Source: Escherichia coli
GTDB taxonomy: Bacteria > Pseudomonadota > Gammaproteobacteria > Enterobacterales > Enterobacteriaceae
Length of the DNA stretch: 10,264 bases
Strand: one strand, 5' to 3'
Assembly (NCBI RefSeq): GCF_003334315.1
Contig: NZ_QOWR01000089.1
The translations under genes were made by a program, and so were the position numbers. Of the stretch, positions 1-10,264 are shown in pieces; position 1 is the first letter of the stretch, and each line of letters opens with the position of its first letter. The notes beneath the pieces were generated by a model. It saw nothing but the letters and a program-made list of their open reading frames with translations, ran no database searches and was not told the origin of the DNA.

Positions 1-375
1 GACGAACAGTGGGGCTACGTCGGTGCTAAATCACGTCAGCGCTGGCTGTTTTACGCGTATGACAGGATACGGAGGACGGTTGTGGCGCACGTCTTCGGTG
101 AACGCACTCTGGCCACACTGGAGCGTCTTCTGAGCCTGCTGTCGGCCTTTGAGGTCGTGGTATGGATGACGGATGGCTGGCCGCTGTATGAATCCCGCCT
201 GAAGGGAAAGCTGCACGTAATCAGCAAGCGATATACGCAGCGAATTGAGCGGCATAACCTGAATCTGAGGCAGCACCTGGCACGGCTGGGACGGAAGTCG
301 CTGTCGTTCTCAAAATCGGTGGAGCTGCATGACAAAGTCATCGGGCATTATCTGAACATAAAACACTATCAGTAA
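1..375 (+). CDS. insB: IS1 transposase InsB, C-terminal portion (5'-truncated by window edge); stop TAA at 373-375
   Basis: Open frame from base 1 in frame with ORF 82..375; translation matches the IS1 InsB C-terminus from memory. Confidence 0.9.
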
Positions 376-390
376 GTTGGAGTCATTACC
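1..390 (+). mobile_element. IS1 insertion sequence, partial (3' ~390 bp; window begins inside the element); terminus ...aagttggagtcattacc ends at 390
   Basis: Encodes the InsB C-terminus (…[70 protein letters not shown]) and ends with the characteristic IS1 terminal inverted repeat (ggtaatgactccaac, read on the complementary strand). Exact reverse complement of 9875..10264. Confidence 0.93.
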
Positions 391-451
391 AACGATAGTA
401 AGGAATAGTGGATTCCCAACTCATTCCTCCCAGCAAACCAATTGTTTTCAT
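391..451 (-). pseudogene. ygeA: 5' stub of ygeA (Asp/Glu racemase-family protein), interrupted by IS1 after ~21 codons
   Basis: Minus-strand reading gives RBS aggagagagg followed by ATG AAA ACA ATT GGT TTG CTG GGA GGA ATG AGT TGG GAA TCC ACT ATT CCT TAC TAT CGT = MKTIGLLGGMSWESTIPYYR, then runs straight into the IS1 terminus at 390. Matches the recalled YgeA N-terminus. Confidence 0.75.
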
Positions 452-540
452 TCCTCTCTCCTGATGTGTGTTACCGCAACAAGGCTGAATAAGGAACGAG
501 ACAAACGCCTCAACGGCCAGGTGCCCAATCTCTATTAACG

Positions 541-573
541 AAAAAAGGGCCGGATGTACAGCACATCCGGCCC
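541..573 (-). terminator. Rho-independent terminator downstream of araE
   Basis: GC-rich inverted repeat gggccggatgt / acatccggccc (547-557 and 563-573, loop acagc), followed on the minus strand by a run of 6 T (541-546), 7 bp after the araE stop. Confidence 0.8.
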
Positions 574-579
574 GTGAAA

Positions 580-1998
580 TCAGACGCCGATATTTCTCAA
601 CTTCTCGCCTGCCATCAGTTTGCGTTCGATATGTTCCAGGGTGACATTTTTGGTTTCCGGAATGAGCCAGAAAGTGATGCCCACAAACGCAATGTTCAGC
701 GCAGTGTAGAGCCAGAACGTACCGGCAGCGCCAATGCTGTCGAGCAGCGTCAGGAAGGTCGCGCCGATAATCATATTCGACACCCAGTTCGTGGTGGTCG
801 AACAGGTAATACCGAAATCGCGGCATTTCAGCGGCTGAATTTCAGAGCACAGGATCCACACCACTGGCGCGGCGCTCATCGCATAACCGGCAATACACAT
901 CATCGTCATGCCAACAGAGAGCCATGACAGGCCACTGGAAGCCGTGCCGTTATCAAACTGCATCAGACAATAGCCCAGCACCAGAGTGCCTAACGCCATC
1001 ACGCTGAAACCAATTTTCAGAGCCGGTTTACGCCCTGCTTTATCTACCGTAAACACCGCAATAAAGGTGGCGAACATAAAGGTCAGCCCTACGACCAGAG
1101 TCGCAATCATCTGTTGTTCTGTCGTCGTAAAGCCCGCCATTTTGAAGATACGTGGCGCGTAGTACATGATGATGTTCATACCGGTAAACTGCTGCATCGC
1201 CTGCAACAACATACCGAGAAACACAGCACGACGGACGTTACGGTTGATCTTAAACAGTGCCCAACCGCCCTGTTTTAACTTCAGGCTTTCACGAATTTCG
1301 TTGAGTTCTTCTCGCGCTTTTTCCGACGTATCGCGCAGCATACGCAATACTTCTTCCGCCTCAATATGACGCCCCTTTTCCGCCAGCCAGCGCGGGCTAT
1401 TTGGCAGGAAGACCACCAGAATAATCAGCAGGACTGCTGGTAAAGCAAGAACCCCCAACATTGCGCGCCAGTTACCGCTATAACTGAACGCTGTATCGGA
1501 TAAAAACGCCAGCACGATGCCGAGTGTGACCATCAACTGGTACATACTGATCATCTTACCGCGAACGTTTTCACTTGCCATTTCAGAAAGATACAGAGGA
1601 GCGGTGTAAGAGGCGATCCCGACAGCAATGCCCAGCACCACACGAGCGGCGATTAACATCTCTACGCTGGTCGCAAAAGCGGACCCTATCGAGCCGAGCA
1701 CAAACAGGATGGCCCCCGCCATCAGGCTGTATTTACGCCCCAGGCGGAACGACAGCCAACCATTAAACAGCGCACCAATTGCTGCGCCGAGCATCATGCT
1801 ACTGACCACCCATTCCTGCAAACGGCTGGTCAGCACAAAGTGATCGGTAATGAACGGCAACGCTCCGGCGATTACGCCGATATCAAGACCAAATAACAAT
1901 CCTGCGACCGCAGCAGCTACCGAAACAAACATATTCATACGCCGCGTATCCCGCAAAGAACGTGGCGTTAAAGCAGATTCCGTATTGATAGTAACCAT
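580..1998 (-). CDS. araE: Arabinose:H+ symporter AraE (MFS sugar porter), 472 aa
   Basis: Translation from [31 protein letters not shown]… to …[18 protein letters not shown] matches E. coli AraE from memory. MFS sugar-porter motifs present ([20 protein letters not shown]). The ORF-track extension to 2127 lacks an RBS; the ATG at 1996-1998 follows gcaggaaaaa. Confidence 0.95.
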
Positions 1999-8316: not shown

Positions 8317-9126
8317 ATGTACTGGATTATTAACGATAATATCGAGTTCTGGCCTGAGCACCGAAAATTAATATCGGTACATAACGCCGATCTTAACGTC
8401 GTTCTGACAACGCCAGCCAGTCGATGTTTATCACTTCTACTTGAAGCTTTTCCTGATGTGGTTGCACAACAAGATTTTTTCACCAGAGTCTGGGAAGAAG
8501 AAGGTATGCGTGTGCCTACTAACACGTTATATCAGAACATATCCATTATCAGACGCGGATTTCGCGCTGTTGGTGATACTACCCACTCGCTAATTGCAAC
8601 CGTGCCGAGAAGAGGATTCAAGATCCATAATGACATTAACATACAAAATCATGTAATAAACTCGTCAACAGACGCACATACACACAATGCCCCACCTGCC
8701 ATAAAAGTTAATGCGGGATACAAAGAGAGCATTGGTGGCGCAAAGAATTTCAATAACAAAATCCTCAAACATATAAAAAGTCATCTAATTATGTTGAGCG
8801 CATTTGTCATAGGCGCATATTCTGCATATTGGCTATGGAATAATAATCAACCGAAGCCATTTTTCAAGGATTACAAGACTGTTGCGGAAATTAATGGCTG
8901 CCATTTTAATGTAACAGAAGATACAATTGATGGGTTGAAAGAGTTCGATAAATATAAAACACGGATACTGGATTCGGGGATTAACTGTAAAAAACATCCG
9001 TGGTTATACTTCCCTCTTGCAAAATCCTCACCGGGGATGATTGTTATGGCATGCAATAAAAACTATAACCAACATGAAGTGGCAGACTGTTTAACCCTGT
9101 CTTATCGTGAGGTTAATCGTGATTGA
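8317..9126 (+). CDS. yqeI: ToxR/CadC-like membrane-anchored winged-helix transcriptional regulator YqeI, 269 aa
   Basis: N-terminal OmpR/PhoB-type winged helix with CadC/ToxR-like pattern (…FFTRVWEEEGMRVPTNTLYQNISIIRRGFRAVGDTTHSLIATVPRRGFKI), a single predicted TM helix (IMLSAFVIGAYSAYWLW), then a ~90-aa C-terminal domain. No strong SD before the ATG. Confidence 0.85.
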   Translation: MYWIINDNIEFWPEHRKLISVHNADLNVVLTTPASRCLSLLLEAFPDVVAQQDFFTRVWEEEGMRVPTNTLYQNISIIRRGFRAVGDTTHSLIATVPRRGFKIHNDINIQNHVINSSTDAHTHNAPPAIKVNAGYKESIGGAKNFNNKILKHIKSHLIMLSAFVIGAYSAYWLWNNNQPKPFFKDYKTVAEINGCHFNVTEDTIDGLKEFDKYKTRILDSGINCKKHPWLYFPLAKSSPGMIVMACNKNYNQHEVADCLTLSYREVNRD

Positions 9127-9601
9127 TTATAAAAAAAACTTATTATTTATTTTAGTTTTTATCAGTGGGTTTATTCTCTTCACTGTCTATTCTTACACTG
9201 CAGAAAAAATGATATATAACGAAACACGCACTGCAAATTGGGTAATTTTTAATGACCAGGGACGAGCAAATCTTACCATCGACTTTATGTATAACAAAAA
9301 AAATAAAACAGGAACTGTTGCGTTGAGTGGAACCTGGCAACAAGGTAACAGAGAAAGTAAATCAATACGGCGAAATATTGAATACACATGGATTGAAAAC
9401 TATGACACAGCCCATTTAACATCAAAGAAAGTTAATAAGTTTGAGATTATGGATCAAGTTGATGATGATAGACTTGCACAACTTATTCCTGATTTTTATG
9501 TCTTTCCAGAAAAAAGTGTAAGCTATAATATACTAAAGCAAGGTAAGCATGCTTTTATTTTGAGCATTGGTAACAGAGCAATAATGCATTGTGCAAGGTA
9601 A
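9119..9601 (+). CDS. yqeJ: Small membrane-anchored protein YqeJ, translationally coupled to yqeI (about 160 aa)
   Basis: GTG at 9119 preceded by gagg (9109-9112); overlaps the yqeI stop (9124-9126) by 8 nt. N-terminal hydrophobic anchor LLFILVFISGFILFTVYSY then a hydrophilic domain. The ORF-track start at 9107 is an in-frame upstream GTG, also possible. Confidence 0.72.
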   Translation: MIDYKKNLLFILVFISGFILFTVYSYTAEKMIYNETRTANWVIFNDQGRANLTIDFMYNKKNKTGTVALSGTWQQGNRESKSIRRNIEYTWIENYDTAHLTSKKVNKFEIMDQVDDDRLAQLIPDFYVFPEKSVSYNILKQGKHAFILSIGNRAIMHCAR

Positions 9602-9633
9602 ACTAAAATAGATAACAAAAAGATGGAACCTCG

Positions 9634-9714
9634 TTAATCATAAAACAATAAAATTAAATATTCTCGCAGTATATGGCAGTCTAAAGCATCAAAGATTTGA
9701 TCAACATCTTTCAT
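9634..9714 (-). CDS. yqeL: Small ORF (26 aa, MKDVDQIFDALDCHILREYLILLFYD), probably the small protein YqeL
   Basis: Minus-strand ATG at 9712-9714 preceded by strong SD AAGGAG (complement of 9724-9729) at 9-nt spacing; stop TAA at 9634-9636. Below the ORF-track size cut-off. Identity as yqeL recalled by position and length only. Confidence 0.45.
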   Translation of the reverse strand: MKDVDQIFDALDCHILREYLILLFYD

Positions 9715-9752
9715 TTTAGACATCTCCTTGCAATGTAAAATATCATGTATCA

Positions 9753-9874
9753 ACAACATCTGGTGCAAATCCATGAGTCGAACTCGACATTCATCTTAGC
9801 TCGATTATTATTCCTTCGTACAGTCGATGTAAACAATACAGAAAGAGGATTATTAAGAACCAGTTTACTCAGTG
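9753..9874 (-). pseudogene. Possible 3' remnant of an IS1-truncated gene (yqeK expected here by synteny)
   Basis: On the minus strand an open frame runs from the IS1 boundary (9874) for 39 codons ([40 protein letters not shown]) to a stop at 9753-9755, ~24 nt upstream of the yqeL RBS. No upstream start exists because IS1 abuts it. Identity unverified. Confidence 0.25.
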
Positions 9875-10264
9875 GGTAATGACTCCAACTTATTGATAGT
9901 GTTTTATGTTCAGATAATGCCCGATGACTTTGTCATGCAGCTCCACCGATTTTGAGAACGACAGCGACTTCCGTCCCAGCCGTGCCAGGTGCTGCCTCAG
10001 ATTCAGGTTATGCCGCTCAATTCGCTGCGTATATCGCTTGCTGATTACGTGCAGCTTTCCCTTCAGGCGTGATTCATACAGCGGCCAGCCATCCGTCATC
10101 CATACCACGACCTCAAAGGCCGACAGCAGGCTCAGAAGACGCTCCAGTGTGGCCAGAGTGCGTTCACCGAAAACGTGCGCCACAACTGTCCTCCGTATCC
10201 TGTCATACGCGTAAAACAGCCAGCGCTGACGTGATTTAGCACCGACGTAGCCCCACTGTTCGTC
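9875..10264 (-). mobile_element. IS1 insertion sequence, partial (3' ~390 bp, inverted relative to the left copy); terminus ggtaatgactccaac begins at 9875
   Basis: Exact reverse complement of 1..390 (identical InsB translation from ORF 9890..10183 on the minus strand); IS1 terminal inverted repeat at 9875-9897. Confidence 0.93.
9890..10264 (-). CDS. insB: IS1 transposase InsB, C-terminal portion (5'-truncated by window edge)
   Basis: Identical 97-aa tail to the left copy; frame stays open to the window edge. Confidence 0.9.

Follow-up and report, generated by a model that had tools for sequence, protein, structure and literature searches.

The window, by which we mean the whole 10,264-nt stretch of Escherichia coli DNA analyzed here, is probably a complete short-read contig of the native chromosome, bordered by two independent simple IS1 insertions, in ygeA and in yqeK, and ending in assembly breaks. 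It would look like a bracketed segment because separate IS1 copies sit in ygeA and yqeK and a short-read assembler stopped inside each of them. A previous interpretation made from the letters of the window (the sequence-only reading) had proposed IS1-mediated deletion, inversion or composite-transposon formation. This proposal is not borne out: the interior is colinear with the chromosome of E. coli S30, the segment was found on no genuine plasmid and at no second location, and draft assemblies contain the outer junctions of simple insertions. The data give no sign of a deletion, of transposon movement or of a novel element.

The interior of the window is native chromosome

Between the two IS1 arms, the 9484 nt at positions 391-9874 align end-to-end and colinearly with E. 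coli S30, with three SNPs and no gaps. The gene order is ygeA'-araE-kduD-kduI-yqeF-yqeG-yqeH-yqeI-yqeJ-yqeL-'yqeK, and the encoded proteins are common alleles, identical to their S30 counterparts, the sole exception being one residue of YqeF. The features of the window are as follows.

1-390, plus strand: IS1 nt 379-768, left copy, by alignment to full-length IS1 copies; G at 372
391-399: inner target-site duplication of the left IS1, AACGATAGT
391-451, minus strand: 5' remnant of ygeA (racX), ATG at 451-449, with 20 codons and 1 nt left
580-1998, minus strand: araE, intact, protein identical to that of S30
2313-3074, minus strand: kduD, intact
3104-3940, minus strand: kduI, intact
4227-5408, minus strand: yqeF, intact, with the single-residue difference V33 versus D in S30
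5663-6892, plus strand: yqeG, intact
7352-7984, plus strand: yqeH, intact
8317-9126, plus strand: yqeI, intact
9119-9601, plus strand: yqeJ, intact
9634-9714, minus strand: yqeL, 26 aa, a "hypothetical protein" in related-genome annotation
9750-9874, minus strand: 3' remnant of yqeK, the final 41 codons plus stop codon (125 nt)
9866-9874: inner target-site duplication of the right IS1, TACTCAGTG
9875-10264, minus strand: IS1 nt 379-768, right copy, the other allele; A at the site that corresponds to 372

In the top complete-genome matches, the segment lies at its native chromosomal locus only. A search of the plasmid collection recovered no genuine plasmid, the near-full-length matches being only records of 4.8-4.9 Mb that are filed as plasmids. 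Among the closest relatives of the window, each record contains 34-40 places matching IS1, which indicates many IS1 copies. Judged from these sequence matches, the host is an IS1-rich, S30-like E. coli. A Shigella origin, considered in view of the suggestion of a Shigella-like genome, is ruled out by the three SNPs per 9,484 nt relative to E. coli S30. With a GC content of 33-39% between 7000 and 10000, the surroundings of the yqeK target are AT-rich, and an Rfam scan of the window yielded no family above threshold.

The two ends carry different IS1 alleles

The only long inverted repeat of the window joins its two ends (arms 1-393 and 9872-10264, 99% complementary); no further inverted pair longer than 34 nt was found within the window. 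The right inverted repeat (IRR) of IS1, which reads ...AAGTTGGAGTCATTACC, ends at position 390 and its reverse complement starts at 9875, so that each end of the window is an IS1 right end whose terminus faces inward, just as the sequence-only reading had it. The arm termini read GGTAATGACTCCAACTTA(T/C)TGAT and are either identical to the annotated right end of IS1A/IS1B or one base off. Positions 1-372 of the left arm encode the C-terminal 124 codons of the transposase, followed by a stop codon at 373-375; the 124-aa product contains the Pfam domain PF03400 (DDE_Tnp_IS1, the InsB part), and PGAP labels the matching copies in complete genomes as IS1 family transposase.

The first and last 390 bp had been described as exact reverse complements. 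They are indeed inverted IS1 arms, but they are not identical, since they differ at four sites (78/10187, 93/10172, 195/10070 and 372/9893). All four differences are synonymous and fall on third codon positions, and the translation of a 97-aa open reading frame is the same in both arms. By sequence, the two IS1 copies are thus different alleles, each of them a patchwork of IS1A-like and variant-like segments in the alignment. The right arm matches full-length IS1 copies of the complete genomes AP025209.2 and CM149865.1 with 100% identity. Such exact-allele copies are 768 bp long and have a frameshifted transposase; the window itself contains nt 379-768 only. For the left arm, the best match among complete genomes is 99.7% and the exact allele was not found in them; this allele could in part be an assembly consensus.

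Each insertion has its own duplication and native outer flank

Junction 160-mers were compared with 5,426 complete E. coli genomes, which contain neither the exact left or right junction nor one in the opposite orientation; IS1 was present only nearby. Neither did junction 30-mers match anything in genome_contigs and metagenome_contigs, and exact look-ups of the 44-aa and 53-aa open reading frames crossing the junctions returned no record. We sought the outer flanks by predicting which proteins should remain on the outer sides after simple insertions and by searching public draft assemblies for them. Both insertion sites, missing from the 5,426 complete genomes, are present in these drafts.

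On the left, ygeA, which is read from the minus strand, is cut after 20 codons and 1 nt, in line with the truncation after about 21 codons noted before, and its remnant reads MKTIGLLGGMSWESTIPYYRW*. After a simple insertion, one would expect a start-shifted YgeA protein (210 aa, TTG start), and this protein was found in a public draft assembly (RCQ30224.1). A 93.6-kb contig of GCA_003334315.1 (L026) has the arrangement galR-lysA-lysR-ygeA3'-AACGATAGT-IS1 left end. In SRR1122540 (L028), we found the cut YgeA product expected when a contig stops 28-30 nt into IS1; it is recorded in three samples, and the second of the two ygeA cut products that we tried gave no record upon exact look-up. The ygeA-side flanks of both contigs are 100% identical to S30, and both contigs carry, between ygeA3' and the IS1 left end, the same 9 bp that stand at 391-399 of the window, an inner flank correctly read before as aacgatagt. 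The left IS1 is accordingly framed by AACGATAGT on both sides, the outer copy being read from the partner contigs.

On the right, IS1 interrupts yqeK 125 nt short of the stop codon and does not lie directly after yqeL as had been assumed, since 125 nt of the yqeK 3' end are kept at 9750-9874. In S30, yqeK corresponds to L003 13370-13795, and the insertion falls after 13494. The 9-mer ttactcagt, which had been placed at 9866-9874, is located at 9865-9873, and positions 9866-9874 read TACTCAGTG. A fusion consisting of YqeK residues 1-103 and a terminal R (104 aa, without an accession), which requires both the 9-bp duplication and a stop codon in the IS1 tip, was predicted and is recorded on 16 contigs; all of the longer ones run on into ygeF, ygeG, ygeH and the ETT2 type III secretion genes. 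Exact look-ups of four yqeK3' cut products gave no record. Two of the contigs, L019 and L024, read IS1 left end-TACTCAGTG-yqeK5'-ygeF-ygeG-ygeH-ETT2, and their IS1 left end pairs with the junction seen in the window. The same 9 bp are thus present on both sides of the right IS1, the outer copy again coming from partner contigs.

Since the predicted outer products were found in public drafts, each IS1 is flanked by a 9-bp direct repeat of its own, with native DNA on the outer side. Continuation into ygeA/lysR and yqeK/ygeF with one direct repeat per IS1 is the arrangement that the sequence-only reading had associated with two independent insertions and named as speaking against its own proposal. 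Its argument that the inner flanks do not match, and that one simple insertion was hence disfavored, does not hold: comparing inner with inner flank says nothing about target duplications because a duplication flanks either one IS element (inner and outer side) or the two outer sides of a composite. The outer junctions on the partner contigs presumably belong to the window's own genome, so that the ygeA and yqeK insertions would occur together in one sample.

The IS1 stubs on the partner contigs agree with the alleles in the window. Full-length copies equal to the right-arm allele have the left end GGTGATGCTGCC, as do L019 and L024. The outer-left stub beside ygeA3' is of the GGTAATGGTGCC variant, which alone among the six full-length IS1 types compared shares with the left arm the G at arm position 372.

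The yqeK site is a recurrent IS1 target

Among the matches listed, yqeK5' abuts the left end of IS1 in two of nine cases and the right end in seven of nine; IS1 thus occupies exactly the 9-bp target TACTCAGTG in either orientation, in S30-like backgrounds that are nearly identical. The window itself has an IS1 right end on the yqeK3' side, and samples with the opposite orientation are SRR31145779, ERR10016961, SRR30947207, SRR27948231, SRR35816634, SRR35627083 and GCA_902841155.1. These opposite orientations indicate that the site was struck more than once, and sharing it is no proof of common descent. In 12 plus 49 complete genomes, an IS1 is no more than a few hundred bp away from the site. 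It is decidedly unlikely that, in some genomes, the target is flanked by an IS1 right end on either side, through an inverted IS1 pair, an IS1-bounded composite with outward right ends or an in-place orientation change; such a structure, if true, would exceed a plain insertion hot spot. At this site, CCAGTTTACTCAGTG together with GGTGATGCTGCC would signify a simple insertion in the other orientation, and the one unusual result, a right end on either side, would show as CCAGTTTACTCAGTG together with GGTAATGACTCC.

Both ends stop at the same point inside IS1

Both window ends stop at the same IS1 coordinate, in a short stretch that is common to all IS1 variants compared and lies between variant-specific SNPs. 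The ends of many NCBI draft contigs lie no more than 1-2 nt away, and L020 ends one base short of a site that separates the two arms of the window. In the public collection, the exact 124-aa product of draft contigs ending in this IS1 codon occurs in at least 110 blocks. A control product shorter by 10 residues (114 aa) likewise occurs in 110 blocks; this equal listing indicates that the break position is common and lends no support to a special status for it.

We best read the shared end point as a contig break, in agreement with the caveat, already voiced in the sequence-only reading, that contig ends may collapse into the IS1 repeat. Two different IS1 copies would have inserted independently, one at codon 21 of ygeA and one in yqeK, each creating the usual 9-bp target duplication and leaving the DNA on its far side unaltered. 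The assembler would then have walked from each unique flank 390 nt into IS1 and stopped where its path joined the other IS1 copies; both ends would lie at the same position because the assembly path merges there with these copies. Paired or long k-mers probably explain why it reached 390 nt into the repeat while retaining copy-specific SNPs. For the cell, the effect would be the knock-out of two genes, ygeA/racX and yqeK.

Alternative explanations

Two IS1 copies that lie 9.5 kb apart in inverted orientation can serve as a substrate for inversion by RecA, and the two simple insertions may have been followed by homologous recombination between the 768-bp copies that flipped the 9.5-kb segment, possibly in part of the population. 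Such a flip would alter the sequence of none of the four junctions between flank and IS1, nor the IS1 alleles next to the flanks, and is compatible with the observed junctions. We nevertheless consider it unlikely, as it needs an extra event that no positive evidence calls for, and none of the top complete-genome matches has the segment inverted between IS1 copies. The same four junctions, with both IRR inward and both left inverted repeats (IRL) outward, would result if a single IS1 in ygeA or yqeK had made a one-step duplicative inversion into the other site by intramolecular replicative transposition. In that event the new copy should equal its parent, yet the arms differ at four sites and the outer stubs are of two types (GGTAATGGTGCC beside ygeA3', GGTGATGCTGCC beside yqeK5'), so that a later gene conversion would have to be invoked; the different alleles thus make this route highly improbable.

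The outer flanks lie outside the window, and an IS1-mediated adjacent deletion or other rearrangement might have removed DNA beyond one or both elements in the window's strain, for example ETT2 or lysR. ETT2 is widely degraded in E. coli, and IS1 insertion is among the causes (PMC6985150). However, native DNA follows on both sides in public contigs that share the junction nucleotide and the 9-bp repeat; an adjacent deletion would leave no second 9-bp copy, whereas the partner contigs resume exactly at the duplicated 9 bp; and the interior is gap-free relative to S30. We regard such a loss as very unlikely. The composite transposon Tn9 has direct IS1 copies and Tn1681 inverted ones, and the window formally shares the architecture of Tn1681, an inverted IS1 pair around a passenger segment. 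That IS1-araE...yqeJ-IS1 moved as a unit is nevertheless extremely improbable. Unlike in Tn9 and Tn1681, the passenger is native chromosome in its native place: it ends inside ygeA and yqeK, its natural neighbors, exactly where the chromosome continues. The outer 9-bp sequences, AACGATAGT and TACTCAGTG, differ, each matching the inner flank of its own IS1, so that there is no common duplication, and neither a genuine plasmid nor a second location carries the segment.

Relation to known IS1 insertions and contig breaks

Two independent simple insertions into the native chromosome, the explanation that we prefer, are of a kind already known. They resemble simple insertions of the IS1 family (IS1A/IS1B and IS1X-like iso-IS1) in the terminal inverted repeat, the DDE_Tnp_IS1 domain, the 9-bp duplications, the AT-rich yqeK target and the many copies in related genomes, without any difference of kind. 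The ends likewise resemble repeat-induced contig breaks in that both stop at one internal IS1 coordinate, near many NCBI draft contig ends, but they differ from a simple k-mer overlap by reaching 390 nt into the element with copy-specific SNPs kept. Contigs that end symmetrically in an IS element should not be taken as rearrangements. As to method, one can predict which fusion or truncated proteins a simple insertion should yield and use them to recover the outer flanks of repeat-bounded contigs from public assemblies. The case is one of two genes, ygeA/racX and yqeK, knocked out by IS1 at the strain level on the border of the degraded ETT2 island, and carries little wider weight. Close relatives have simple IS1 insertions with 8-10-bp duplications at other points of this region.

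IS1 Arms and Interior of the Window

The sole long repeat in the window is a terminal inverted pair (arms 1-393 and 9872-10264, 99% complementary), and alignment to annotated full-length IS1 copies identified both arms as IS1 nt 379-768, with the IS1 transposase domain (PF03400) in a 124-codon reading frame. The sequence-only reading had described identical inverted IS1 ends; inverted right ends they are, but they are not exact complements. Four mismatches separate them (78/10187, 93/10172, 195/10070, and 372/9893), each a synonymous third-codon difference in the transposase frame. 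Of the inner flanks, the window DNA adjoining each arm, the first had been given correctly and the second was off by one base.

Features at the window ends
1-390, left IS1 arm; right inverted repeat ends at 390
391-399, left inner flank, AACGATAGT
9750-9874, final 125 nt of yqeK
9866-9874, right inner flank, TACTCAGTG
9875-10264, right IS1 arm; right inverted repeat ends at 9875, other strand

The arms are patchworks, matching a divergent IS1 variant at positions 18-160 and IS1A at positions ~216-390, which suggests that IS1 copies have undergone recombination or gene conversion with one another.

When the window was compared by megablast with 5,426 complete E. coli genomes, the interior fell in the locus ygeA-araE-kduD-kduI-yqeF-yqeG-yqeH-yqeI-yqeJ-yqeK, with the nearest strains at 99.8% identity. 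The interior (391-9874) aligned gap-free with E. coli strain S30, with 3 SNPs, and its proteins are those of S30 except for one YqeF residue; the window therefore derives from an E. coli of that lineage, not from Shigella. The relatives yielded 34-40 matched places per record in the megablast and are therefore IS1-rich. On the left, IS1 truncates ygeA (minus strand) after 20 codons plus one base, as the earlier estimate of about 21 codons had it. The right IS1 had been placed directly after yqeL; it lies within yqeK, whose last 125 nt are retained. From yqeH to yqeK, in the right-hand third of the window (7000-10000), the GC content is 33-39%, against about 50% over araE-yqeF, and this drop delimits the horizontally acquired region associated with ETT2, the type III secretion island past yqeK. 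IS1 prefers AT-rich DNA such as the yqeH-yqeK stretch.

Probable Native DNA beyond Both IS1 Copies

We sought the outer flanks, the DNA beyond each IS1, by predicting the product of a simple insertion that duplicates 9 bp. On the left, the upstream frame supplied by IS1 lacks a start codon, so gene callers would be expected to begin ygeA anew at codon 21, a TTG; the predicted 210-aa product is on record (RCQ30224.1). The 93.6-kb contig L026 (GCA_003334315.1) reads galR-lysA-lysR-ygeA3'-AACGATAGT-IS1 left end. The cut product predicted for a contig ending 28-30 nt into IS1 is on record for three samples and occurs in L028 (SRR1122540). The two flanks match S30 at 100%.

On the right, codons 1-103 of yqeK were predicted to enter the IS1 tip, adding one Arg codon before a TGA or TAA stop (in GGTGA/GGTAA). 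This 104-aa YqeK fusion is on record, exactly, on 16 contigs, each with the order yqeK5'-CACTGAGTA-IS1 tip; their flanks share 99.5-100% identity with S30, and the longer contigs run on via ygeF, ygeG, and ygeH to the ETT2 type III secretion genes. The IS1 left end GGTGATGCTGCC, found on L019 (ERR4221154) and L024 (SRR9990212), is the putative partner of the window's right junction.

Two Insertions or One Event

With the outer junctions recovered from public assemblies on both sides, each IS1 copy is flanked by a 9-bp direct repeat of its own, with native DNA on the far side. This is the very arrangement that the sequence-only reading had named as refuting the IS1-mediated rearrangement it put forward. 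The simplest reading is two independent insertions from different donor IS1 copies. The right-arm allele matches full-length IS1 copies in AP025209.2 and CM149865.1 at 100%, and the left end of these copies is GGTGATGCTGCC, as in L019 and L024. The stub on the outer left, 77 nt long in L026 and 30 nt in L028, has exactly the sequence of the GGTAATGGTGCC variant of strain ST12468, the only one among six full-length copies compared to carry G, the left-arm state, at arm position 372. A duplicative inversion from a single IS1 by intramolecular replicative transposition would yield derived products with the four junctions of two simple insertions, both right ends inward. It predicts two identical IS1 copies, however, whereas the arms differ by 4 SNPs and the stub types differ too, GGTAATGGTGCC on the outer left versus GGTGATGCTGCC on the yqeK side. 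Two insertions thus remain the simplest reading, and the segment could since have been flipped by homologous recombination between the inverted copies, which keeps every flank on its own IS1 end and leaves the junction sequences the same.

The layout formally resembles that of Tn1681, which bears inverted IS1 copies, and a composite transposon, an IS1 pair around a passenger segment, had also been considered. Yet the segment ends inside its natural neighbors, the two outer 9-bp sequences are unlike each other, and our search of a plasmid collection found the segment on no genuine plasmid. An adjacent deletion is unlikely as well: it would leave no second 9-bp copy, and one is present on the public contigs. 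Three PLSDB records (H81-H83) of 4.8-4.9 Mb match the whole segment; these are apparently chromosomes that were entered as plasmids.

The elements are already known and act as expected, viewed through a fragmented assembly. ETT2 attrition, with IS1 among its causes, is documented (PMC6985150).

Contig Ends inside IS1

The window stops within a short segment common to all IS1 variants compared, with variant-specific SNPs on both sides, the nearest upstream polymorphism being 5 nt past the window end. At NCBI, draft contigs of many assemblies stop no more than 1-2 nt from this base. A control cut placed 10 codons deeper was as common, which makes the end position typical and not special; contigs end inside IS1 everywhere. 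L020 (GCA_902841155.1; 3964-4158), which stops one base short of arm position 195, polymorphic between the window arms, illustrates how assemblers break at IS1 allele differences. Because partner contigs hold the missing left ends, two biological truncations at one base are not needed. The caveat that both edges might be contig ends collapsing into IS1 is the likeliest account of the common end point, and we infer that the window represents an entire contig.

IS1 at yqeK and Neighboring Sites

Neither window junction occurs in any of the 5,426 complete E. coli genomes, and searches of two large contig collections gave no match to the junction 30-mers. IS1 lies close to the yqeK site, at most a few hundred bp away, in 12 of these genomes with the window's orientation and in 49 with the opposite one; yqeK is often hit by IS1. 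In public draft assemblies, IS1 occupies the window's own 9-bp yqeK target in both orientations.

IS1 end adjoining yqeK5' in the nine places shown
Right end, 7 of 9: L017, L018, L020-L023, L025; opposite orientation to the window's
Left end, 2 of 9: L019, L024

Over 1.2 kb, the opposite-orientation flanks match S30 at every position (100%), with S30-like backgrounds throughout. Recombination cannot swap the IS end at a flank; the two orientations therefore reflect a hot spot struck a second time (the more likely option) or a structure that presents an IS1 right end to each flank (less likely).

Further IS1 copies occur in close relatives, in yqeI, ygeH, and yqeK and in the araE/kduD and ygeF/ygeG gaps, with duplications of 8-10 bp at those copies alignable on both sides. 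Truncated forms are numerous in the YqeK protein cluster; one of them, 101 aa long and named from Shigella sonnei, is present on at least 1,000 contigs. A separate ygeA IS1, 5 bp from the window site and in the opposite orientation, occurs in ERR3329398 (Logan; L027 1-40).
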